Source: Bacteroidota bacterium (lineage in GTDB: Bacteria; Bacteroidota; Bacteroidia; Chitinophagales; Chitinophagaceae). From it: DNA of 45,202 nt. Numbering within the stretch: the stretch's first letter is position 1; each line of letters begins with the position of its first letter. Both the position numbers and the translations under genes were made by a program. The notes beneath the pieces are model-generated. The model was not told where the DNA came from. It saw only the letters and a program-made list of their open reading frames with translations, and searched no databases. Below are positions 8,352 to 43,359 of this stretch, one piece after another. The DNA is taken from NCBI GenBank assembly GCA_023392185.1, contig JAEVZP010000147.1, positions 1 to 45,202 of the forward strand, read 5' to 3'.

Positions 8352-9044
8352 TTATGCGGCGTCTGCCTGCGGAACGGCAGCCTTCAGCGCTTTTTTCAAA
8401 ACCGGCGGTGTTCTTTTTTCAATCGGCGGACAGAAATGGACGACGCCGCTGTAGAGGTCATACAGGGCTGGCACGACGGCTACTTCGCCTTTGTCCACCA
8501 GCTCGCGAATGATCTCGCTTTCGTCATACACGCGCTGGGCGTTCAGAATGGCGTTGCGCTTGGAGACATTGCGGTTGAAATCGCCGGTTTCCGCTTCGTT
8601 TTCGTGGGCTTTTTCATAATCAATCGCCGGCTGGATGCGCACTAAAACATCGGTCAGATGTCCCAGTTCCACACCTTTAACGGCTCCGGCAACAGCCCCG
8701 CAATTGGTGTGTCCCATGACCAGAATGAGTTTGGAACCAGCAGCGGCTACGGCATATTCCAGCGAACCGAGGATAGAAGGCATTATTACATTTCCGGCGA
8801 GGCGAATGGAAAAAATATCGCCCAGGCCCTGATCAAAAATCAGTTCGGCAGCCGTGCGGGAATCCATGCAGGACAGAATGGCGGCAAAAGGCAATTGCTG
8901 GTCGCGGGTTTGGTCGGCTTGTTCACGCAGATTGTGCTCAAGGCGCTCATTGTTGACGAATCGGTAGTTGCCGTCGCGCAGCATTTGCAGGGCAACAGCA
9001 GGCGTCAGGTCGTGGGGGCGGGGATGGCGGTCGGTAAAAGGCAT
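8352..9044 (-). CDS. beta-class carbonic anhydrase
   Basis: The motifs CMDSR...GHTNCGAV give the Zn-ligand Cys/His/Cys pattern of beta-carbonic anhydrases. The gene lies 60 nt downstream of the SulP gene on the same strand. Confidence 0.88.
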   Translation of the reverse strand: MPFTDRHPRPHDLTPAVALQMLRDGNYRFVNNERLEHNLREQADQTRDQQLPFAAILSCMDSRTAAELIFDQGLGDIFSIRLAGNVIMPSILGSLEYAVAAAGSKLILVMGHTNCGAVAGAVKGVELGHLTDVLVRIQPAIDYEKAHENEAETGDFNRNVSKRNAILNAQRVYDESEIIRELVDKGEVAVVPALYDLYSGVVHFCPPIEKRTPPVLKKALKAAVPQADAA

Positions 9045-11398: not shown

Positions 11399-12403
11399 TT
11401 AGCGTACCGACAGCTTGGCAGTGCCGGCGAAAGTGCCTTGTGCAATGCGCACGAGGTACATACCGGTAGCCAGCGTGGTGTTAGCCACTGGCAGTACAAC
11501 CGTTTCGCCTTTGGCAGCAACGTTTTCAGTAGTGGCCACCACGCGGCCCGCGAGGTCGGTCACGGTTACGGTATAAGCGCCGTTCCCAGGAGCGGTAAAG
11601 GTGGCTTTCACATCGTTGGCAACGCCATTGCCCAGCAGGGTCAGCGGCAGGTTATTGGCAGCTGCGTTGGAAACGCCCTGTGCATTGTCCCAGGTGAGGT
11701 TAAAGTCGTCGATCTGCGTCGTAGCGCGGTTACCACCACCGGTAGTGACGGTCAGCGCTACAATGCGGATCCACATTTCCTGATTCATATTGTCCAGCGC
11801 ATTGCCAAAGTCGACATTGATCATGTTGCTGCCGATGGCCTTACCGCCGGTGGTCACAGTGCCGGTAACAGTCGGGGCGCTGGTAAAGGTCATTGGGGTG
11901 CCCGTACCATATTGGATAGCCCAGGTTGTAGTGCGGCCCGAAGCGGTATCGGCCGACTGCAGTTTAAAATCCAGTTTGAAGTTGGAGGAGCCTGCGGCAG
12001 GCATGAATTTGAAAACGAAAGCTGCGCCGGAGTCGGAACCGGGGAAGCTAGTGCTGGTAGCGCCTACCTGACGCACAGCGAGTGCCCGGTCGGTTATGGC
12101 TGCCTGCGAGGCAGAGTCGGCCGTGTAGTTGGCCAGCGTGACGCCGTTCATGGAAGCGCTGTTGCGGAAACCGCCCATGGTAGAGTTCCACTTTACCGGA
12201 GTAGCAGTGAATTTTGTGCTGCTTACATCATTACCGGCTGTTGTAGCCGAAGCGCCTGAGTAAACAGCCCATCCGGCCGGAAGTCCGTTCGCCAGCGTGT
12301 TAAAATCCTGAACATAGCTGGTTCCGGTCAGGTTGATGGCTTGTGCAGAAGCGCTAACGCCTGCAAAGGCAGCGGCAGCGAGGAGTAGTAGTGTTTTCTT
12401 CAT
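11399..12403 (-). CDS. secreted protein with T9SS (Por) C-terminal sorting domain
   Basis: The signal peptide is MKKTLLLLAAAAFAGVSASAQA. The C-terminal ~80 aa (YTVTVTDLAGRVVATTENVAAKGETVVLPVANTTLATGMYLVRIAQGTFAGTAKLSVR) have the typical T9SS type-A CTD pattern. Confidence 0.8.
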   Translation of the reverse strand: MKKTLLLLAAAAFAGVSASAQAINLTGTSYVQDFNTLANGLPAGWAVYSGASATTAGNDVSSTKFTATPVKWNSTMGGFRNSASMNGVTLANYTADSASQAAITDRALAVRQVGATSTSFPGSDSGAAFVFKFMPAAGSSNFKLDFKLQSADTASGRTTTWAIQYGTGTPMTFTSAPTVTGTVTTGGKAIGSNMINVDFGNALDNMNQEMWIRIVALTVTTGGGNRATTQIDDFNLTWDNAQGVSNAAANNLPLTLLGNGVANDVKATFTAPGNGAYTVTVTDLAGRVVATTENVAAKGETVVLPVANTTLATGMYLVRIAQGTFAGTAKLSVR

Positions 12404-22874: not shown

Positions 22875-23189
22875 AACCAACACATTTTGTTTATATCCAA
22901 AAAGAAAAAAAGATGCCAGCTTTTCCGGAAATCGGACCTTTTACAAACGACGCAGGCGGCCCGGAGCCTTGTGCCAAAAAGGTTTTCAGGGAAAAAGCTG
23001 CTTGAAAGGGCCCTGCATCCTGGCAGCCTCAAAAAGGGAATTATTAACGGATTCTTGCCGGTTGGCCCCTCCAGAGCAAAGAATACAGCCTGCGTCGTTT
23101 GGACCCTCTGCTGCCCGGTTTGCCTTTTTGGAGCGCCCTCCCCGGGCGGCGCTCCAACACCCCTGGGGCACATACCTTTGATTCTCCCT

Positions 23190-24865: not shown

Positions 24866-24912
24866 GAGCGCCCAACCTGTCAGGTTTCAAAAACCTGACA
24901 GGTTGGGCGCTC
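24866..24912. terminator. perfect 22-bp-stem hairpin between the convergent GH3 gene and recJ
   Basis: The stem is GAGCGCCCAACCTGTCAGGTTT (24866-24887) / AAACCTGACAGGTTGGGCGCTC (24891-24912) with a 3-nt loop. There is no clear T-run. Confidence 0.55.
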
Positions 24913-31019: not shown

Positions 31020-31281
31020 AAGGCTAAGGTAGGGTGGGGGCAAAATTTTTTTGATTTTGGAAAATGTTTTCCGTCGTAACATTGCTTCATCATTTCCTAT
31101 GGTGACGGATTTGGCAAAGCAATGAGCCGCGCGAAAAACTTTTTCTCCGCACCCCCACTGTATTTTCCGGAAATCACACCCTGACGCCTTCCCGTTTTTC
31201 CACTGAGGCAGGCCTGAAGCGAACGTGTCGTTCCCGATTTTCCCTTTCGTTACATTTTTATTTTACCGACGTCATTTTTTC

Positions 31282-33894
31282 ATGCCGTACGATTACGCAA
31301 AGCTCAGCGATATGAATGCTGAGGCGCTGGCGCAGATAGCCCGCGAAATGGAGGTTGCCAATTTTGAAAACCTCGAAAAACAAACCCTGATTTACAAGAT
31401 TCTCGATCAGCAGGCCGTGCGCCCGGCGTCTAAATCTTCTTTCTCTAAAGCAACAGAAGTAGTGATTACTGAAAACGCACCGGAAGAAGCGCCCGTAAAA
31501 AAACGCCGGGGCCGCCCTGCCAAAGCCAAGGCTGCGGAAGAAACGCCCGCACCGCTTGACGTGCCGCCGGCTATGGACGCAGCCATTCCACCCGTCGATC
31601 CGGCTGAGCCGGTCATTATCACCGATGATGCCGCCGAAGCCGGGCTGGTAAAAAAACGCCGCACCAAGGCTGCGAAGCCAAAGGCGAAGGCCGAACCGGA
31701 AGCGGCAGCAGAAGCAACACCGGTGACGGAACAGGCAGAAGCCGTTCCCGGGAAAATTCCGGAAAAAACCGAAGAAAAAGTAGCCGAAAAGCCCCGCCGG
31801 GGGAAGGCCGCCCGTGCCAAAGCCCAAACTCCGGAAAAAGAAACAACCGAAGTACCTGCAGCCTCGGCTAAAGAAAGTGCGGCAAAAGAAACGCCCGCAA
31901 AAGGCGCATCGGCAACAGAAGCGCCGGCTAAAGGGGCGGTAGATCGCGCGGTGGCCGCCGACTGGGCCGAAGTATCACGCGAGCAGGAGCGGGGCAATAT
32001 GCAACATGCCGACGAAGCCGCCGGCAACGCACCTGCCGCCGCTGCATCCGAAGAAAAGCCGCAAACGCCAACTCCGGCGCCGCCTGCCCGGCCCCAGGTG
32101 CGTCAGCAGGAACAAACACCGCGTCCGGCAGCCGAGAATGCACCCCGCGACCCGCGCCCGGCACGGGAGCAGCACCCACCGCGCGAACAACAACAGCGGC
32201 CGCAGCAGCAATCCCAGCAACCGCGTCCGCAAGGCCCTGCCGACCGTACGCAGCGTCCGGAAGGCGGCGCACCGCCTTCGCAGCATCCGCACCACCGCGA
32301 GCAGCAGCAACGCACCCCGCGCCCGCAGCATCCACAACAACAAAACGGCGGTATCCCTCAACAGCAGCGCGATACCGGCATTCCCCGTGAAGGCCTGCCG
32401 CACCCGCAAAGCCAACAGCGGGAGTTTCCCCAGCAACGCCCCGACAACCGGGTGCCCCGTGACAGTGCGCCGCAACAATCGCAACAACGCGAGTTCGCCC
32501 CCCGCGAACTGCGCCCGCATTCCGATCAACAGCGTCCGCAGCAACAACAGCAGGGCGAAGCGCGTCCTCAAAATCACTCGCAGGACCACCGGCAACAGCA
32601 ACCCCGCGAGAATCGCCCGGCTGCTCCGCAATCGCAACAGCATCCTGCGTCCAATCAGGGCCAGCAGGCACCGCCGCAACAGCAACAGCAGCAACGCGAG
32701 TTCACACCGCGCGAACCACGCCAGCAGGACGCTCCGCAGCGCCCGCAACAGCAGCCACCGCGCACCCCACCTGTGGAGTTCGACGGTATTGTGAAAGCCG
32801 AAGGTGTTGTGGAGTTGATGCCCGACGGCTACGGCTTTCTGCGCTCCTCCGACTATAATTATCTGTCTTCCCCCGACGATGTTTTCCTGGAGCCGAAGCA
32901 AATCAAATCGCTGGGTCTTAAAGCCGGGGATACCGTAGTAGGACAGTGCCGTCCGCCCCGCGAAGGCGAGAAATATTTCACGCTCACGAAGCTGGAAACG
33001 ATCAACGGCAAAACGCCGGAGGAAATGCGCGACCGCGTGCCGTTTGAATACCTGACGCCGCTGAACCCGTATCAAAAGCTCGACCTGAGTAGCGGCATGT
33101 CTTCCTACAGCACCCGCATTATGGACCTTTTCGCACCGATCGGCAAAGGCCAGCGTGGACTCATCGTGGCGCAGCCCAAAACCGGTAAGACCATGCTGCT
33201 GAAGGAAGTGGCCAATGCTATTGCCCGCAACCACCCGGAAGTCTATCTTATGGTTGTGCTGATCGACGAACGCCCGGAAGAAGTAACCGACATGCAGCGC
33301 TCCGTTCGTGCCGAGGTGATCGCTTCTACCTTCGACGAGCCGGCCGACAAGCACGTCAAGGTTTCGACCATGGCGCTGCAAAAAGCCAAGCGCTTGGCCG
33401 AGGTTGGTCATGATGTCGTGATTCTGCTGGATTCCATTACCCGCCTCGCCCGCGCCCACAACACCGTTGCGCCGGGTTCCGGAAAAGTGCTTTCCGGTGG
33501 TGTGGAAGCCACAGCGATGCAAAAGCCCAAGCAGTTTTTCGGTGCAGCCCGTAAAATCGAAAATGGTGGCTCGCTCACCATTCTGGCCACGGCGCTGATT
33601 GATACCGGCTCGCGCATGGACGAGGTGATCTTTGAAGAATTTAAAGGCACCGGCAACATGGAACTGGCCCTCGACCGCAAACTGGCCAACCGCCGCATCT
33701 TCCCGGCAATTGACTTGGTAGGCTCTTCCACACGCCGCGACGACCTGCTTCTGAATGAGGCCATTCAAAACAAAATGTGGATTCTGCGCAAGCACATTGC
33801 TGATATGAACCCCGACGAAGCCATGAACTTCCTGCTTCAGCAAATGAAAGGCACCAAAAGCAACGAAGAGTTTCTGGCGACAATGAACCGCTAA
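31282..33894 (+). CDS. rho: transcription termination factor Rho with ~450-aa low-complexity N-terminal insertion
   Basis: The ATG at 31282 opens a Rho_N-like start, [25 protein letters not shown]. The CSD-like RNA-binding domain is [21 protein letters not shown]. Walker A is AQPKTGKT. The RecA-type core runs to the C-terminus. An intrinsic terminator follows. Confidence 0.93.
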
Positions 33895-35765: not shown

Positions 35766-36860
35766 ATGCGCTATTACATTCTTGCCGGCGAAGCCAGCGG
35801 CGACCTGCACGGCGCAGCCCTGATTCGCGCCCTCAAAGTTGCTGATCCGGAGGCCGAATTCCGGGCGTGGGGCGGCGATCGTATGGAAGCAGCCGGAGCG
35901 CCGCTCGTGAAGCATTACCGCGATCTCGCTTTTATGGGTTTTGTGGAAGTGGTGAAACACCTCGGCACCATTCTGCGCAACATCCGGCTGGCCAAGGAAG
36001 ACATTACCGCCTACCGCCCCGATGTGTTGATTCTGATCGACTATCCGGGTTTTAATATGCGCATTGCCAAATGGGCTAAGGAAAGGGGAATCCGGGTGGT
36101 GTATTATATCTCGCCGCAGATCTGGGCCTGGAAGGAAGGCCGGGTCAAAGCCTTGCGCCGCGATGTAGATCAAATGCTGGTGATTCTTCCTTTTGAAAAG
36201 GATTTTTATAAAAAACACGATATGGATGTGGCTTATGTGGGCCACCCCCTGATTGGCGCGATAGCGGCGCAAAAGCAAAAACCGATAGACGATTCGCTGC
36301 GGTTCGAAAAGCCGGTAATTGCGCTTTTGCCCGGCTCGCGCGCGCAGGAAATCCGCCAGAAGCTGCCCCTTATGCTGTCGGTAGTAAGGCACTTTCCCCA
36401 CCACCAGTTTGTAGTGGCCGCTGCTCCGGCACAGCCGCTTTCGCTCTACGAAGAGTTGGTAGGCGACCTGCCGGTGGAGATTATTTCCGGAAAAACCTAT
36501 GAGATTTTGCAGGTAGCAACCGCAGCGCTGGTAACGAGCGGCACGGCCACACTGGAAACCGCGCTTTTTGGCGTACCGCAAATTGTGTGTTATCGCGGCA
36601 ACCCCATTTCCTACCAGTTGGCAAAGCGCCTGATCAAGGTGAAATACATCTCGCTGGTAAACCTGATTCTGGATGCGCCGGTGGTTCCGGAACTGATTCA
36701 GGATGCGCTCAACGAAACCAATCTCACCGGGGCGCTTCAAAAACTAACAGATTCCCATTCCACCGAACGAGCCCAGATGCTGGCGCAATACCAAAAGCTG
36801 TGGAACCTTTTGGGCAGCACCGATGCTTCGGCAGAAGCAGCGCGGCACATTGTAGCGTGA
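35766..36860 (+). CDS. lpxB: lipid-A-disaccharide synthase
   Basis: The ORF is trimmed to the ATG at 35766 (MRYYILAGEASGDLHGAALIRALK, the canonical LpxB N-terminus). Also present are LLPGSR and TSGTATLETALFGVPQIV. Confidence 0.9.
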   Translation: MRYYILAGEASGDLHGAALIRALKVADPEAEFRAWGGDRMEAAGAPLVKHYRDLAFMGFVEVVKHLGTILRNIRLAKEDITAYRPDVLILIDYPGFNMRIAKWAKERGIRVVYYISPQIWAWKEGRVKALRRDVDQMLVILPFEKDFYKKHDMDVAYVGHPLIGAIAAQKQKPIDDSLRFEKPVIALLPGSRAQEIRQKLPLMLSVVRHFPHHQFVVAAAPAQPLSLYEELVGDLPVEIISGKTYEILQVATAALVTSGTATLETALFGVPQIVCYRGNPISYQLAKRLIKVKYISLVNLILDAPVVPELIQDALNETNLTGALQKLTDSHSTERAQMLAQYQKLWNLLGSTDASAEAARHIVA

Positions 36861-37095
36861 AGGTTGGAACCTTCGGTGTTGGAGTTGCTTCGCAACGTTG
36901 GAACTTCGTGTTGGAGTGCTTCGCACGCTGGATGATGTTGGAACTTCGCGTGGCTTTTAAATAGAAAGAAACATCACAGAGAAGACCTCAAAAAAGTATT
37001 TTTACGGACCTCCCCTAACATCATCCAACACCCGGAGGGCTCCAACAGCAACGGCTCCAACACGAAGTTCCAACGCACACCGTGCATCCAACCTC
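36859..37095. repeat. ~235-bp compound inverted repeat with 5 GTTGGA[A/G] motifs on the left arm and 5 inverted copies on the right arm
   Basis: A perfect 20-bp inverted repeat pairs GTTGGAACTTCGTGTTGGAG (36896-36915) with CTCCAACACGAAGTTCCAAC (37054-37073). An inner repeat pairs GGATGATGTT (36929-36938) with AACATCATCC (37016-37025). An outer repeat pairs GGTTGGA with TCCAACC. The centre is AT-rich. Confidence 0.85.
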
Positions 37096-37108
37096 AAAAA
37101 CACGCGCT

Positions 37109-37789
37109 ATGACCGAAGATTCCGGAATGCTTTACCTTGTGCCCACGCCAATCGGCAATCTGGGTGACATGACCTACCGGGCGGTGAACGTGCTGAAAAA
37201 GGCCGACCTGATTTTGTGTGAAGACACCCGAACCTCCGGCGTCCTGCTCAAACACTACGAGATTGCCCGGCCCCTGGCTTCGTATCACTTGCACAACGAA
37301 CACCTGCTGACCGAAAAATTTGCGCAGCAGATCGCCGACGGCGCCACGATTGCGCTCATTACCGATGCCGGCACGCCGGGCATTTCCGATCCGGGCTTTC
37401 TGCTGGCCCGTGCCTGTCGCCGGGAGGGGCTGCGGGTAGAATGCCTGCCGGGCGCAACGGCTTTTGTGCCCGCGCTGGTGCAAAGCGGCCTGCCGGCAAG
37501 CAGTTTTGTTTTCGAAGGCTTTCTGCCGGTAAAAAAAGGCCGGCAAACCGCCCTGCAACGCCTGGCTGAAGAAGAAAGAACCGTAATTCTCTACGAATCG
37601 CCCCACCGGCTGGTAAAAACACTTACCGAAATGACGGAACATTTTGGCCCCGAACGACCGGCCTGTGTATGTCGGGAGCTGACGAAAAAGTTTGAGGAAA
37701 GCCGCACCGGAACCCTCGCCGAGCTGGCCGCGCACTACGAAAAACAGCCGCCCAAAGGCGAGATTGTACTGGTGATAGGCGGGAAATAA
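37109..37789 (+). CDS. rsmI: 16S rRNA (cytidine1402-2'-O)-methyltransferase RsmI
   Basis: MLYLVPTPIGNLGDMTYRAVNVLKKADLILCEDTR is the typical RsmI / tetrapyrrole-methylase-fold N-terminus. I prefer the ATG at 37109 over the GTG at 37082, which lies inside the inverted-repeat element. An ATG at 37127 is also possible. Confidence 0.85.
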   Translation: MTEDSGMLYLVPTPIGNLGDMTYRAVNVLKKADLILCEDTRTSGVLLKHYEIARPLASYHLHNEHLLTEKFAQQIADGATIALITDAGTPGISDPGFLLARACRREGLRVECLPGATAFVPALVQSGLPASSFVFEGFLPVKKGRQTALQRLAEEERTVILYESPHRLVKTLTEMTEHFGPERPACVCRELTKKFEESRTGTLAELAAHYEKQPPKGEIVLVIGGK

Positions 37790-37898: not shown

Positions 37899-39686
37899 AT
37901 GTCCCAGTCGTTTTTTGCTGCCGCCGACCTGCCCCGGCAGTTCTCGCTTTTCTTCCAGGATGAAGGTTTTCAGCCTTTTGCGCACCTGCTTTTTCGGAAA
38001 TTAAGCGAAGGCAACGTCTGCATCCACATCGATGATCTGGAGCGGGAAAAACAAAGCCTGCCGGAAAGCTATCAGGAAGCCTTGGCTGCCGGCCGCTGCT
38101 CGCCCTACAATGCACGGCTCGTGGGCGGAGAAACCGACCTGCGCAAACCCTTTATCCTGCACAACGACCGGCTGTATCTGCAACGCTATTTCCGGTATGA
38201 AACCATTTGTGTAGAGCGCATCCGCCGCTTTGCCGAGGAAGAAGAGACTTGCCTGCCGGAGCGGATTGAAGCCCTTCAGGCGTGTAAGGATTTGGTGGAA
38301 AAGCTTTTCGGGAAGGCAGCTACCGGCCCTGACTGGCAACTAACGGCCGCCCTTTGCGCGGCGCTCCAAAACTTTACGATTGTTACCGGCGGACCGGGCA
38401 CGGGCAAAACGACTACCGTAGCCAAACTGCTGGCCCTGCTGTTCACCCTGCAACCTACGTTGCGCGTGGCCCTGGCCGCGCCTACCGGAAAAGCCGCTGC
38501 CCGCATGGCCGAGAGCCTGCGAACAGCGCCGCTGCCCGATGAATTTGAGCCCCTGCGCGATCATTTTGCGGCGCTTTCGCCCGCCACCATTCACCGGCTC
38601 CTGAAGGCACAACGCCATTCGCCTTATTTCCACCACGATTCCGGAAATCCGCTGCCTTTCGACCTGATTATTGCCGATGAAAGCAGTATGATTGATGTGG
38701 CCTTGTTTGCCAAGCTGCTACAAGCAATCGGGCCGGGCACCCGCCTGATTTTGCTGGGCGATAAAAGTCAGCTGGCCTCGGTAGAAGCCGGCAGCATGTT
38801 TGGCGATTTGTGCGGTGCGCTTTCTCACACCAACCGGTTTTGCTCCCGGTGGCATCAGCTACTCAACGATCTTTTCCCCAAAAACGCCGCTCCTTTGCCC
38901 GAAGATGCCGTTTGTGAAGCAGAAAGCCACCCGCTGTTTCGCCGCATCATCACCCTGCAGGTGAGCCACCGCTTCCGCGACGATGCCGGTATCGGGCGCT
39001 TTAGCAAGGCGGTGATTCAAAACGATGAAGTCGCGCTGCAGCAGTTTCTGGAGGAGAATAACGATGTGCAGGTATGCCTTGATGCCGACCACAGCAAAGC
39101 GGTTTTTGAAAGCTTTATTTCCGGGTATGAAGCCTTTATCCGGGAGCCCGATATCCGCACCGCGCTACAAAAGTTAGGCAAATTGCGTGTGCTCGTCGTG
39201 ACGCGGCAGGGCCCTTATGGACTGGCGGATACCAACAGCGCTATCGAAGCGTTTTTGCTGGGCAAAGGCTTGCTGCGACCGCTGCGGGGGCATTACGAAA
39301 ACCGGCCCGTCATCCTCTCCAAAAACTACCCCGACCTGGGCCTTTTCAACGGCGATACCGGGATTGTGCGCCGCGACGAAAAAGGGATTTTGCGGGTTTG
39401 GTTTGAAGGCGCGGGAGGAGAGCTGCGCGCTGTTTTGCCGGGATACCTGCCGGATGCGCAAACGGCCTTCGCCATGACAGTTCACAAAAGCCAGGGATCG
39501 GAGTTCAACGAAGTGCTTGTGCGCCTGCCCGACACCGAAGACATGGCCCTGCTAAGCCGGGAATTGCTTTATACGGCGGTAACCCGCGCCCGCGAAAAAG
39601 TATGGATTCAGGGAAGTGGCAGTGTCGTCCGCGCCGCTGCCGCCCGGAAAATCGCCCGTGCTTCCGGGATTCACGAGCGGTTCTAA
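37899..39686 (+). CDS. recD: exodeoxyribonuclease V alpha subunit RecD
   Basis: Walker A is TGGPGTGKTTTVAKLL. The DExx box is IADESSMID. The C-terminal SF1 motif is AMTVHKSQGSEF. The protein is 595 aa and is followed by recC and recB. Confidence 0.88.
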   Translation: MSQSFFAAADLPRQFSLFFQDEGFQPFAHLLFRKLSEGNVCIHIDDLEREKQSLPESYQEALAAGRCSPYNARLVGGETDLRKPFILHNDRLYLQRYFRYETICVERIRRFAEEEETCLPERIEALQACKDLVEKLFGKAATGPDWQLTAALCAALQNFTIVTGGPGTGKTTTVAKLLALLFTLQPTLRVALAAPTGKAAARMAESLRTAPLPDEFEPLRDHFAALSPATIHRLLKAQRHSPYFHHDSGNPLPFDLIIADESSMIDVALFAKLLQAIGPGTRLILLGDKSQLASVEAGSMFGDLCGALSHTNRFCSRWHQLLNDLFPKNAAPLPEDAVCEAESHPLFRRIITLQVSHRFRDDAGIGRFSKAVIQNDEVALQQFLEENNDVQVCLDADHSKAVFESFISGYEAFIREPDIRTALQKLGKLRVLVVTRQGPYGLADTNSAIEAFLLGKGLLRPLRGHYENRPVILSKNYPDLGLFNGDTGIVRRDEKGILRVWFEGAGGELRAVLPGYLPDAQTAFAMTVHKSQGSEFNEVLVRLPDTEDMALLSRELLYTAVTRAREKVWIQGSGSVVRAAAARKIARASGIHERF

Positions 39687-39786
39687 AATGGAACGCAGAT
39701 AAAACGGGTTCAGACGGATTTACACGGATTTTTTATCTTCAAAAAGCCCCTTTTTCCGGAATTCTGTTTGTACTTCTTCTCTTGAT

Positions 39787-39831
39787 ACTTGTGTCTTGCT
39801 ACTTGCTACTTGTGTCTTGCTACTTGCTACT
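39787..39831. repeat. perfect 21-bp tandem duplication (ACTTGTGTCTTGCTACTTGCT x2 plus a partial unit) 17 nt upstream of the recC start
   Basis: The units are 39787-39807 and 39808-39828. CTTGCTA sub-repeats occur inside each unit. Confidence 0.9.
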
Positions 39832-39847
39832 CAAATTCTCCTAAACC

Positions 39848-42800
39848 ATGCCCATTTCCCTTCAAGTTTCGCACTCTTTGCGCGAACTGGCCCGCCACTT
39901 CACCCGTGATCTTTCCGGGCGGCAGCGGGGCGTGTTCGATGCCGATTATATCGTTACGCAGACGGAGGGCATGAATAACTTTCTGCGCCTGCAGCTGGCC
40001 CGCCACACCGGCATTGCTGCCAACTGCAAATACCTCAGTCCCAACGAGGTGATTTTGCAGGCCTACCGATTGCTTGAGGACGAAACGCAGCGGACCGTCT
40101 CGGTGCCGCAGCTGCGCTGGCAGTTGTATCAGGCCCTGGGAAGCGAAGATTTCCGGAAAAACTTCCCGGATGTAGCCGGATACTATCAAAACAACGAAGC
40201 CGACAGCGACCTGAAGCGGCTGGAACTGGCCGAAAAAGTGGCCGTTCTTTTCGACCAATACCAGATTTACCGACCAAAGCTGATCCGGAAATGGAACCGC
40301 CCGCAGTCCGACCCGGAAGACTGGCAGCAGGCGCTGTGGCAGGCCGTGATGCAATTAACCGAAGGCCGCCTTTCCGACAAAACGCGCATGGGCGACGCCA
40401 TTCTCGAAGCGCTCCGCAATCCCGATAATGTGCGGTATCTGCAACGTCACATGCCAGTGATTCATGTGTTCGGCATTTCGATTATCACCGATTATCACGT
40501 GTCGCTGCTGCATGCCCTGGGCAAGGTGATTGATGTGCGCTTTTACCTGCTCGACCCGGCAGCGGGCGTGTATTGGTATGAAGACCGCAACGAAAAACAA
40601 CTTGCGATCCTTCAAAGCAAAGGCATTGTCATAGAAGGAGCCGAAGGTTCCGGAAATCCGCTGCTCACCAGCTGGGGCCGTGTGGTGCAGGACACCTTCC
40701 GGCTGCTGTTTCGCCACGATGCTTTTCTGAATGCTTATGAAGTGCTGCCCGCCCCGGAGCCTGAGCCGCAAACCCTACTCCAGAAAGTACAGGCCGATAT
40801 CCGTAACGGTGCTGACCGGCACAGTCGCTATTCGCTTTCTGCAACGGACCTGGCCGACGGATCCCTCAGCGTGCATTCCTGCTACACGCCGCTGCGCGAG
40901 GTAGAAGCTTTCTACAATCACCTGATGCTGCTATGGGAGAAAGGAAACGTTTTTTCGCCGCAGGATGTGCTGGTGCTGGTCTCCGACATCAACACCTACG
41001 CACCGTATATCAAAGCCGTGTTCGACAATGCGCCGTACCGCTTTCGCTATACGCTTTCCGACGAAAACCCGCAGGGGGCCGATACGCTCACCGATGCACT
41101 CGTGGCCGTGTTGCAGCTCGATGCCGAGAATTTCAAACCCGAAGAAGTGGCGCAGCTGCTGGAATTCTCCGTCATCCGCGACCGCTTCGGGCTGCATGAC
41201 ACCGCGCTGATCCGCCGGCTGATCCGGGATGCCAACATCCGCTTTGGCCTCGACGGCGACACAGAAGACGACACCCGCTTCGTGAGCTGGCGCTACGGTC
41301 TGCAACGCATTGTGTATGGCGTGTGTATGCAGGGCGATGACCTTTGCACCACCGAAAGCGGCGAAGACCTGCACCCGCTCGACTGTGTGGAAGGCGGCGA
41401 CGCCGAGACGGCCATTCGCTTTGCTTATTTTGCCGAGATGCTGATGCAGCATCTGCAAAACCGCCACCGCGCACGCAGCATTGCCGAGTGGGTGGGCTAC
41501 GTGGAGCGGGTCATCAGTGACCTGATTGCCGACACCGGCGAAGAGATAGACGAAGAGCTGCAAGGGCTTTTAGCACAGCTGGGTGGCTACAACGCTGCTT
41601 TTGAATACATGCCGGAGCCCATTTCCTACGAGGTATTCAGCCGCAGCTTTTTGCAGGGGCTAAAGGGCGCTTCGCAATCCGGCACTTTCGGGTATGGCGG
41701 CATCACGTTTTGCTCTATGGTGCCGATGCGCAGTGTGCCGTTCAAAATCGTGGCCTTGCTGGGCATGGATGCCGATAAATTTCCGCGCCGGGATTCGGTA
41801 GCCTCTTTCAACAAAATGGCCGCGCAGCGCGAAGTAGGCGACCGGAATGTGCGCGACAACGACCGTCACCTCTTTCTCGAAACGGTGCTTTCGGCCGAAG
41901 CGTATCTCTACATCAGTTATCTCGGAAAGGCAGCCAAAGACAATACACCACAGGCACCGAGCCCGCTGGTGGAAGAACTGCTGGATTATATCGAAGACGG
42001 GTTGCCGAAGGCAGAACAGCCGCTCCGCAATTTTGTGGTGCCGCATCCCCTCCACAGCTTTAGTGCCCACTACAACAACGGCGACGCCCGCCTGCGCGAT
42101 TTTCTGCGCCTCGAAGCCGGCTCTACTGCCCAATGGATTCTGGAAGGAAAAGAAAGTGATACCACCATTCCGACGGAAATCGCGCTGCACAGCCTGAGCA
42201 GCTTTGCGACCAATGCCCTGCAAACCTGGTATCGCCACCGCCTGGGCATTGTATATGATCCGTCGGAGGCGGCTTTGTCGGATCTGGAGTTGCTCGCTCC
42301 CAATAATCTGGAGCGCAGTTTTCTGAAAACCAGCTTGCTTTCTTTGGAAGCCGCCGATGCCGAAAGCTGGCGGCTGCAAAAGGTGCGCCGGGGTGCCTTG
42401 CCTTTGCGCAGCATGTCGGTGGTAGTTATGGAAGCCCTGGTGGAAGAAGTGGGCGGGGTGAAAGCGATGCTGAAAAACCTGCTGGGTGATGCACAGCCTG
42501 TGAATGTGGCGGTGTCGGTGGAGTTACCCGGCGGGCTCCGAATTTCCGGAAATCTAACGGTTTATGGCGAAGACAAGCTGTGTTATCCCTGCTTTTCCAA
42601 AAGCGAAGCGCACCACCGCATGAAAGCGGGTCTGACTTATCTGCTGGGCGTAGGCGCAGGCGTGGTGCGCGAATTGCATTTTATATCGCAGAAAGAAGAA
42701 AAGGTTTTTCCGGCGGCAGCCCTTTCGAGGGAAGAAGCGGTCCAAAAGCTACAGGCCATGGTGGAACTGTATCTCGAAGGCCGGGAAGAGCCCTTTGTTT

Positions 42801-43027
42801 TCACCGCTGCCATGCCGGATTGCCTGGCTAAGAAAGACGTTGTGTCCACAATGAAACCGGAGGCTTTCGATGCGGTAATTAAACGTTTTATGGAGCGCGA
42901 ATCGCTGGTGGATGCGTATTTCCGGCATCATCACCGGCAGGGGCTTTGTGGCACTGAAGCCGCGCTTCAAAGCTTCCAGCGAATGCACGCCGTTTTTTAT
43001 GAAAACCTAATGGGGTTATTTGGGTAG
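39848..43027 (+). CDS. recC: exodeoxyribonuclease V gamma subunit RecC
   Basis: The 1059-aa protein lies between recD and recB. The N-terminus (MPISLQVSHSLRELARHF...IVTQTEGMNNFLRLQLA) and the overall length fit RecC. It has no Walker motifs, as expected for RecC. Confidence 0.8.
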   Translation: MPISLQVSHSLRELARHFTRDLSGRQRGVFDADYIVTQTEGMNNFLRLQLARHTGIAANCKYLSPNEVILQAYRLLEDETQRTVSVPQLRWQLYQALGSEDFRKNFPDVAGYYQNNEADSDLKRLELAEKVAVLFDQYQIYRPKLIRKWNRPQSDPEDWQQALWQAVMQLTEGRLSDKTRMGDAILEALRNPDNVRYLQRHMPVIHVFGISIITDYHVSLLHALGKVIDVRFYLLDPAAGVYWYEDRNEKQLAILQSKGIVIEGAEGSGNPLLTSWGRVVQDTFRLLFRHDAFLNAYEVLPAPEPEPQTLLQKVQADIRNGADRHSRYSLSATDLADGSLSVHSCYTPLREVEAFYNHLMLLWEKGNVFSPQDVLVLVSDINTYAPYIKAVFDNAPYRFRYTLSDENPQGADTLTDALVAVLQLDAENFKPEEVAQLLEFSVIRDRFGLHDTALIRRLIRDANIRFGLDGDTEDDTRFVSWRYGLQRIVYGVCMQGDDLCTTESGEDLHPLDCVEGGDAETAIRFAYFAEMLMQHLQNRHRARSIAEWVGYVERVISDLIADTGEEIDEELQGLLAQLGGYNAAFEYMPEPISYEVFSRSFLQGLKGASQSGTFGYGGITFCSMVPMRSVPFKIVALLGMDADKFPRRDSVASFNKMAAQREVGDRNVRDNDRHLFLETVLSAEAYLYISYLGKAAKDNTPQAPSPLVEELLDYIEDGLPKAEQPLRNFVVPHPLHSFSAHYNNGDARLRDFLRLEAGSTAQWILEGKESDTTIPTEIALHSLSSFATNALQTWYRHRLGIVYDPSEAALSDLELLAPNNLERSFLKTSLLSLEAADAESWRLQKVRRGALPLRSMSVVVMEALVEEVGGVKAMLKNLLGDAQPVNVAVSVELPGGLRISGNLTVYGEDKLCYPCFSKSEAHHRMKAGLTYLLGVGAGVVRELHFISQKEEKVFPAAALSREEAVQKLQAMVELYLEGREEPFVFTAAMPDCLAKKDVVSTMKPEAFDAVIKRFMERESLVDAYFRHHHRQGLCGTEAALQSFQRMHAVFYENLMGLFG

Positions 43028-43136: not shown

Positions 43137-43207
43137 CTCTGTTGATTAACACTAAGGGCCTATGCTAAAAATAATGAATTGTGAAAGAAGCTGGTTGTCT
43201 TACAGTT

Positions 43208-43269
43208 CTTTTGTCACCCCGGAACGGGGTCTCACAATATTCCAGGATCCCGTTCCGGGATGACAAAAG
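43208..43269. repeat. MITE/REP-like palindromic element, copy 2
   Basis: The sequence is CTTTTGTCACCCCGGAACGGGGTCTCACAATATTCCAGGATCCCGTTCCGGGATGACAAAAG. It has the same termini and two-hairpin layout as 34296-34368. Confidence 0.8.
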
Positions 43270-43359
43270 ATTATGTCCGAAACAACATAATCCGATTTTC
43301 CGGAAATCCGCTCCAAAAGTCCGCAGTTTCCCCTCTGAAAAATTTATATCCCAATAGTC

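Follow-up and report, generated by a model that had tools for sequence, protein, structure and literature searches.

The spacer between lpxB and rsmI in an uncultured Chitinophagales-like bacterium, whose record comes from metagenomes only, is filled by a 235-bp element that appears to be one locus of a lineage-specific, dispersed family of modular repeats resembling repetitive extragenic palindromes (REPs) and bacterial interspersed mosaic elements (BIMEs); we put the probability of this reading at roughly 55%. The DNA analysed here (hereinafter, the window) comprises positions 1 to 45,202 of contig JAEVZP010000147.1 of the assembly GCA_023392185.1, and L-numbers denote the sequence loci with which it was compared. 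The family is built from one basic unit, a GTTGGA tag with a variable hairpin; the 235-bp palindrome is a larger structure composed of these units. The units share this anatomy and recur at unrelated loci, the arrays vary in presence and in size between relatives, and the tag is conserved. The lpxB-rsmI spacer is base-for-base identical across three independent assemblies of the same organism and is therefore not an assembly artefact.

Each module consists of the GTTGGA tag followed by a mini-hairpin of 7-17 nt, the loop of which is commonly TTC; on the TCCAAC strand this reads GAA, a GNA triloop. The modules are stacked head to tail, four to six per array, with a unit length of about 13-23 nt. 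Among 47 inter-tag spacers from 12 arrays of the lineage, 31 are distinct and 7 nt or longer; 22 of these are mini-hairpins over their full length, with stems of 2-6 bp and loops of 3-5 nt. Added up, the stems span 92 bp as compared to 50 bp after shuffling, a total that was not attained once in 5000 shuffles. The loops on the GTTGGA strand are mostly TTC (9 cases), TGC (3) and TTT (3), which correspond to GAA, GCA and AAA on the TCCAAC strand, and the stems vary from unit to unit (GCCC/GGGC, GTTGC/GCAAC, AC/GT and others). Several module types, namely ACTTCGT, GCCCTTCGGGC, GTT(T/G)CAC and GCC-N-GGC, recur in differing orders. Several units carry GCGAAGC or CCGAAGG on the TCCAAC strand; DNA mini-hairpins of the GCGNAGC/CCGAAGG type are unusually stable (PMC13037366). 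In these motifs and in related C-GNA-G hairpins, which fold very stably as single-stranded DNA, the TCCAAC strand resembles the d(GCGNAGC) mini-hairpins found in promoters of phage N4 and at sites of single-strand initiation (PMC13037366); it differs from them in that the motifs belong to a chromosomal intergenic repeat.

In the window, the two arms of the element are two such arrays in opposite orientation (Table 1). The left one begins 2 nt downstream of the lpxB stop codon (TGA at 36858-36860) and reads GTTGGA-ACCTTCGGT-GTTGGA-GTTGCTTCGCAAC-GTTGGA-ACTTCGT-GTTGGA-GTGCTTCGCAC(GCTGGATGAT)-GTTGGA-ACTTCGCGT; it includes a degenerate sixth tag, GCTGGA, at 36929, and is reported by Tandem Repeats Finder as 2.2 copies of a 32-nt period with 87% matches. 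The right arm, with the spacers ACCCGGAGGGC, AGCAACGGC, ACGAAGT and GCACACCGTGCA on the plus strand, ends 16 nt before the rsmI ATG and, when read on the opposite strand, shows the same tag-spacer-tag form. The five GTTGGA and five TCCAAC words described in the earlier note are all present, with its left positions one base too low and its right ones mixed; the AT-rich core between the arms is likewise real, at 65 rather than ~75 nt. The core holds TATTTTTA at 36994-37001, which matches the Bacteroidetes -7 box TAnnTTTG with one mismatch; a scan of positions 36500-37500 for sigma-70 promoters and intrinsic terminators gave no match. The proposal that the element reaches into rsmI through a GTG start holds only in that the GTG, at 37082, does lie in the right arm; the supported start is the ATG at 37109 because the N-termini of homologues read MTE...LYLVPTP. 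The resulting 226-aa product is recorded in three assemblies. Altogether, the window contains 22 copies of GTTGGAR against 12.3 +/- 3.0 expected; 8 of these are in the 235-bp element, and the number outside it, 14, is what chance would give. The latter observation rules out a Chi-like site, a candidate considered on account of the RecBCD-type genes just downstream.

Table 1. Coordinates of the features of the window. Positions are counted from the first letter of the contig; a point in the strand column means that no strand is assigned.
Feature	Position	Strand	Description
lpxB coding sequence	35766..36860	+	Pfam LpxB, E = 9.6e-94; public contig calls a 364-aa product
Left array	36863..36951	+	GTTGGA at 36863, 36878, 36897, 36910 and 36937
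Mini-hairpin GTTGC-TTC-GCAAC	36884..36896	+	5-bp stem, 3-nt loop; opposite strand contains GCGAAGC
Perfect 21-bp inverted repeat, left copy	36896..36916	+	A-unit GTTGGAACTTCGT then next tag
Mini-hairpin GTGC-TTC-GCAC	36916..36926	+	Opposite strand GTGCGAAGCAC
AT-rich non-repeated core, 65 nt	36952..37016	.	61% A+T over 80 nt
Right array	37024..37092	-	Plus-strand TCCAAC at 37024, 37041, 37056, 37069 and 37087
Perfect 21-bp inverted repeat, right copy	37055..37075	-	Pairs with 36896-36916
rsmI (16S rRNA C1402 2'-O-methyltransferase family)	37109..37789	+	Pfam TP_methylase, E = 8.8e-35
Separate hairpin TTGGAGCGCC...GGCGCTCCAA with one tag	23129..23158	.	TCCAAC 33 nt upstream of the probable ATG of a GH3-family gene

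Arrays of this type are found, in both orientations, at no fewer than six other, unrelated loci of the lineage, and at least seven distinct loci are represented among the fragments of several genomes. A scan of the JGI metagenomes for the exact 20-mer GTTGGAACTTCGTGTTGGAG identifies five contigs that correspond to four loci, each with a four- or five-tag array and none at the lpxB-rsmI junction. The GC content does not differ among them, and the hyper-abundant palindrome TTTCCGGAAA described below is present at three (all but the 2-kb L141). With gene names taken from reading the translated products, three of these arrays lie 4 nt from the ATG of a tadA-like gene, 23 nt from that of a kdsA-like gene and 32 nt from that of an mqn-like gene for a radical-SAM protein, respectively, and the fourth adjoins a small membrane-protein gene, the ATG of which is inside the array. 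Locus L008 contains a second array of five tags beside the start of cysS. L141 and L121, the latter from a genome in GTDB (a metagenome-assembled genome, MAG), share only a ~135-nt segment that comprises the array and its tail, with 81% identity; the flanks are a glycosyltransferase-like and an mqn-like gene in L141, whereas L121 has a gene resembling that of 2-oxoglutarate dehydrogenase E1 (sucA) and an outer-membrane-like gene in convergent orientation. Array segments thus reach non-homologous loci, for which this shared segment with its unrelated flanks is direct evidence. L144 has five units 5' of kdsA, as opposed to only the ATG-proximal one, TCCAAC plus GCGCGAAGC(A/G)C, in GCA_002336725.1, where KdsA is 93% identical. 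Throughout ~217 kb of clade sequence the arrays are discrete and not accompanied by cryptic degenerate copies. Scans of the GTDB genomes and of IMG/VR with a degenerate three-tag pattern yield, among the matches listed, mostly coding repeats from many phyla, with L121 as the sole array of the window type; the orientation of these matches relative to open reading frames (ORFs) was set aside because shadow ORFs make GC-rich loci unreliable.

The junction itself varies among close relatives. In L009/L010 (GCA_004144185.1; LpxB 80% identical) and in L136 (RsmI 85% identical), lpxB and rsmI overlap as ATGA and the spacer is absent, so that the empty site envisaged in the earlier note exists. L008 (LpxB 85%) has a 112-bp spacer with six direct GTTGGA words after the stop codon, followed by AT-rich sequence and lacking a right arm. 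The spacer of L133 (LpxB 88%, RsmI 91%) is two-armed, with four GTTGGA words, a core of ~85 nt and six TCCAAC words; its arms show periods of 16-17 nt. L134 (RsmI 89%) has another upstream neighbour and three to four tags 5' of rsmI, and in L131 (RsmI 93%) the region upstream of rsmI is replaced and the array is absent. The C-terminal tail of LpxB beyond ...ARxIV also differs among the relatives. From the state of the spacer across these loci it follows that the spacer arose within the clade, splitting an ancestrally overlapping gene pair, and that it has been remodelled repeatedly since its origin. The right arms of the window and of L133 are collinear; the tag columns are identical in 27 of 27 positions (a partly circular count because the aligner anchors on the tags), and the non-tag columns are 62% identical, which is close to the 50-56% at four-fold degenerate sites in lpxB and in rsmI. 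Compensatory changes at two stem positions (C-G to T-A and A-T to C-G) leave the pairing intact. This comparison of two sequences, anecdotal as it is, shows that tags and dyad symmetry persist while the spacers drift. The combination that the earlier note had reckoned against its own proposal (a single-copy element, absent from all relatives with no empty-site signature, and lacking transcription or conserved structure) does not apply.

Differences in array length between relatives, the 32-nt period repeated 2.2 times in the left arm and the 16-17-nt periods of L133 could also be accounted for by a neutral local minisatellite, produced by slippage or template switching at GTTGGA microhomologies, with neither mobility nor function and with the hairpins as mere by-products; the simple (GTTGGAA)n and related heptamer satellites of other Bacteroidota fit such a scheme as well. 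It is quite improbable, however, in the face of the same module types (ACTTCGT, GCCCTTCGGGC and GTT[T/G]CAC) and the 135-nt segment at unrelated loci, of dyad symmetry far above chance in spacers with differing stems, and of compensatory changes between orthologous units. As regards the satellites themselves, plain GTTGGAA-type tandem repeats (GTTTGAAA, GTTTTAAA, TTTGGAA) are intergenic in other Bacteroidota among the matches listed. The largest, of ~700 bp, is found at positions 5024-5760 of L124 (a Chitinophaga pinensis MAG), and others in L090, L127, L084, L033 and L039. Outside Bacteroidota, the three-tag matches are mostly inside long open reading frames, again among the matches listed.

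Empty sites and multiple loci, including the ~135-nt segment in non-homologous surroundings, bear out the general direction of another suggestion of the earlier note, namely that the element is a miniature inverted-repeat transposable element (MITE) with subterminal transposase-binding repeats. As a classical MITE, it would be a non-autonomous cut-and-paste element with AGGTTGGA...TCCAACCT as its terminal inverted repeats and with GTTGGA words near the ends to bind a DDE transposase. Like a MITE, the element is small (235 bp) and non-coding, has inverted arms built of repeated short words, and is missing in some relatives. Its outermost 8 bp form a perfect inverted pair and its arms of ~90 nt an imperfect one; the ends of L141 form a comparable pair, GTTGGAG...CTCCAAC, with 12 of 15 positions matching. 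Yet a classical MITE seems very doubtful. No target-site duplication is seen at the window, L141, L121 or L133 (in the window, the flanks GTGA/CAAA or, alternatively, GAAG/CTCA do not match), and no second full-length copy was found in the window, the compared loci or the metagenome matches. In BLAST against the window, these loci and matches align only over array pieces of 47-70 nt, and what is shared amounts to modules of 13-17 nt and one array-plus-tail segment. Most members of the family are one-armed, with the order of the units shuffled, and a transposase gene was not found nearby in a scan of the ORFs of the window. The two arms of the window element are 62% alike, as compared to 52% for shuffled sequences, and those of L133 are no better than shuffles.

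The perfect inverted repeat within the arms is 21 bp long, one more than previously noted. It does not mark a transposon terminus because its 20-mer is also present in four other arrays; a recent inverted duplication as its source is also ruled out since the word is a family module at other loci. Since both arms draw on one small set of module types, pairing between them can give an imperfect hairpin or cruciform of ~240 nt. A 251-nt stretch folds with -97.5 kcal/mol on the plus strand (z = -6.7) and -108.5 kcal/mol on the minus strand (z = -6.9), values matched by none of 200 shuffles. The long RNA stem-loop considered in the earlier note is not kept in the two-armed spacer of L133 (z = -0.44) or the one-armed spacer of L008 (z = +1.3); L133 has no inverted repeat beyond tag-based matches, and its core is unalignable with that of the window (40% identity against 43% for shuffles). 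The long stem-loop is thus not conserved but lineage-specific. An Rfam search of the whole window at the gathering threshold gave no match, and for the locus at E <= 10 only chance-level hits. Without an Rfam model, and with orthologous spacers in L133 and L008 that fold unremarkably, the element does not qualify as a conserved structured RNA.

Bacteroidota are known for invertons, and the perfect 21-bp repeats could be taken for recombinase sites around a ~138-bp segment that flips to switch rsmI. The AT-rich character of this segment and its near match to the -7 box would agree with such a switch, which is nonetheless exceedingly improbable, considering that the repeat word is a common module also present in one-armed arrays, that L133 lacks a comparable inverted repeat, that no recombinase was found among the ORFs of the window, and that all three assemblies have a single orientation.

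The main alternative, unlikely although not negligible, is a cis-regulatory leader of the host, in which TCCAAC boxes and hairpins with GNA loops are bound by a protein or shape translation or mRNA stability in these bacteria, which are poor in Shine-Dalgarno sequences. Under this explanation, transcription from the AT-rich core would provide rsmI with a leader formed by the right arm, and the left arm would be a mirror copy facing lpxB. The orientation of the arrays speaks in its favour: 8 of the 12 have TCCAAC on the sense strand near an ATG (rsmI in two cases, cysS, the tadA-like, kdsA-like and mqn-like genes, the membrane-protein gene and the divergent gene of L134), with AT-rich sequence on the gene-distal side of the arrays. 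The retention of the ATG-proximal kdsA unit in a relative without the remaining array, and the perfect conservation of tags between species, point in the same direction. The other four arrays break the rule, three being left arms after the lpxB stop codon and one, L121, being located in a convergent spacer; as only some six loci are independent, the bias in orientation reaches no more than p ~0.02-0.03. The downstream genes are functionally unrelated, arrays are absent or shrunken in close relatives with the same genes, no promoter motif is shared at a fixed distance, and the tags are spaced irregularly, 8-27 nt from start to start, out of helical phase.

Among known systems, the GTTGGA family is most readily compared with REPs, which are short tagged palindromes, often located 3' of genes, that form dimers and arrays (PMC3733652). 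With REPs, BIMEs and REPINs the family shares short tagged intergenic hairpins that are dispersed and clustered in arrays and inverted pairs (PMC3733652), that often begin directly behind a stop codon, that vary among relatives and that lack target-site duplications. The family also differs from them. The REP tag is GTAG or CGTC, neither of which is found at the feet of the GTTGGA hairpins; REP hairpins are 20-40 nt long with conserved stems, in contrast to 7-17 nt with variable stems; REP units alternate, whereas GTTGGA units are mostly arranged head to tail; and REPs have a cognate REP-associated tyrosine transposase (RAYT), an IS200/IS605-like Y1 transposase with a gene flanked by the repeats, a counterpart of which was not detected among the 24 ORFs of the window that were scanned. 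Cyanobacterial short tandemly repeated repetitive (STRR) sequences are intergenic tandem arrays of ~7-nt words, dispersed over the genome and lineage-specific; the plain (GTTGGAA)n arrays of other Bacteroidota are of this kind. Unlike these, the window arrays interleave the word with variable mini-hairpins and form an inverted pair.

Under the REP/BIME-like reading, modules and arrays would spread or be reshuffled via the shared tag, possibly through HUH/RAYT-like single-strand activity on tag and hairpin or, by another route, through recombination and slippage between tags. Within the transcript of lpxB and rsmI, the element might form a structure between the cistrons and thereby uncouple them; candidate local effects are protection of the lpxB 3' end, partial termination, or a substrate for RNase III at the 21-bp helix, and rsmI would then be expressed by read-through or from a start in the AT-rich core.

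Several observations weigh against this reading. A Pfam scan of 24 ORFs of the window reveals no RAYT/IS200-like or other transposase and no recombinase. The units fall short of the length of classical REPs, and the sequence of the stems is unconserved, unlike in copies of a master element. In 8 of the 12 arrays, the sense strand carries TCCAAC at 0-90 nt 5' of a start codon, which fits a host leader too, and the test of tag conservation suffers from the partial circularity mentioned above. Furthermore, this is the only array locus in the 45 kb of the window, no array is present in ~54 kb of GCA_002336725.1 (L006, L131 and L146), and the census of arrays covers fragments of several related genomes.

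A stronger version, which we regard as rather improbable, holds that modules of 13-17 nt are the smallest known self-propagating DNA units, with a single-strand-specific activity (HUH-type or other) that recognises a tag adjoining a hairpin and adds or exchanges modules beside tags already present. If so, the shuffled unit orders would be explained, the kdsA locus, with one unit versus five, would capture array growth in progress, and the arrays would represent a new class of REP-like systems in Bacteroidota. A literature search on GTTGGA/TCCAAC repeats in Bacteroidetes returned nothing relevant, and a description of GTTGGA-tagged mini-hairpin arrays was not found. Tagged intergenic hairpin repeats are familiar in general. 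REP-like repeats are well studied in Proteobacteria but scarcely described in Bacteroidota, and the GTTGGA family sets itself apart by a six-base tag, minimal hairpins, and conservation that is limited to the tag, dyad symmetry and loop type. Mobility of the modules would imply a novel activity on single-stranded DNA; a role as host leaders would be relevant to gene expression in bacteria without Shine-Dalgarno pairing. GTTGGA arrays split operons, their long hairpins may mislead programs that search for RNA structures or MITEs, and the variation of arrays between close strains could make them markers for strains in metagenomes.

Several other identities were considered and rejected. The iteron-like array proposed in the earlier note is not supported: the word of 6 nt compares with Rep sites of 17-22 bp in plasmid or phage iterons, the spacing is irregular, the context is chromosomal and housekeeping, and there is neither a rep gene nor similarity to plasmids or phages. 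Specifically, blastn of the element gave no match among PLSDB plasmids and INPHARED phages, and neither the 20-mer nor the B-unit 23-mer had a match in IMG/VR. Integron attC sites have the polarity 5'-RYYYAAC ... GTTRRRY-3' in the cassette array; the GTTGGA...TCCAAC polarity of the element is reversed on both strands, and there is no cassette or integrase context. Motifs of extracytoplasmic function (ECF) sigma factors (GGAAC) and of sigma-54 are ruled out as only GTTGGA, not GGAAC, is conserved across species. A transcribed GTTGGA strand would, like CsrB/RsmZ, present GGA words 13-19 nt apart between hairpins. In this case, however, GGA lies between the hairpins and not in the loops, there is no Rfam match, and the array is not a discrete gene; a CsrA sponge is thus ruled out, the orientation also being wrong at most loci. 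CsrA is not known in this group of bacteria. A resemblance to the 3' end of 16S rRNA (G[C/U]UGGA), a match of 6-7 nt, was set aside. No tRNA or tmRNA was found in the window.

The smaller hairpin that the earlier note described elsewhere in the window is present (Table 1) and may be a solo relative of the family, but it is indistinguishable from the background in a scan for tag plus hairpin.

The 45 kb of the window contain 30 copies of the palindrome TTTCCGGAAA, where shuffles predict 0.11, and 57 copies of TTCCGGAA. The sites of TTTCCGGAAA include 2407, 2417, 8312, 11366, 18772, 18782, 24456 and 30038, as well as 36484 (in lpxB), 37796, 40150 and 42543 (in recC). The palindrome is equally abundant in L004, L006, L131, L133, L134 and L146 and absent in L008, L137, L139 and other Chitinophagaceae loci. 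This lineage-specific hyper-abundant palindrome is reminiscent of the cyanobacterial HIP1 or of uptake sequences. In the relatives with the empty site, TTCCGGAA is located exactly at the 3' end of lpxB.

Other repeats are found in the window and in the loci compared with it. The cysS-aroG spacer of L008 contains, at 8415-8554 and beside the second GTTGGA array, 3.3 copies of a 42-nt tandem repeat, AAAAACACCTGTTGATGTCCTCCTGCACATCTGCAGGAAGGG. A tandem heptamer array of CTTGATA/CTTGTGT/CTTGCTA is located at 39781-39829 of the window, directly 5' of recC (ATG at 39848), and a related CTTGATACTTTCGT array is found in L006 at 11540-11700, within the 660-bp spacer 5' of sucC. A second dispersed array, of the pyrimidine-rich word CTCTTTTGTCTTTTGTCT(ATCGTCTTTCGTCT), closely precedes start codons at unrelated loci of the lineage, in L131 (13925-13962, recC), L006 (4141-4189), L141 (1783-1814) and L142 (~1120-1150). 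Two hairpins of the window are terminator-like: a perfect 22-bp hairpin (GAGCGCCCAACCTGTCAGGTTT, with a 3-nt loop) at 24866-24912 in the spacer between the GH3-family gene and recJ, and a 25-nt hairpin with 92% complementarity at 43207-43270.

Two protein-coding genes of the window also include repeats. The Rho gene (31225-33894) encodes an 889-aa protein with a large Q/R-rich repeat insertion, GC-rich (65%) at the DNA level, between the N-terminal and RNA-binding domains (repeats at 32279-32753); Q/R-rich insertions are typical of Bacteroidota Rho. The RluB-like gene at 581-2149 on the minus strand (S4 and PseudoU_synth_2 domains) contains degenerate tandem repeats of 78-87 nt at 1408-1868, in its N-terminal part, which is probably a low-complexity basic extension. 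Downstream of rsmI, the genes for a RecD-like helicase, RecC and a RecB-like protein (UvrD/PDDEXK) occupy 37899-43027 and beyond, and the order rsmI-recD-recC-recB is kept in L131 with one gene inserted.

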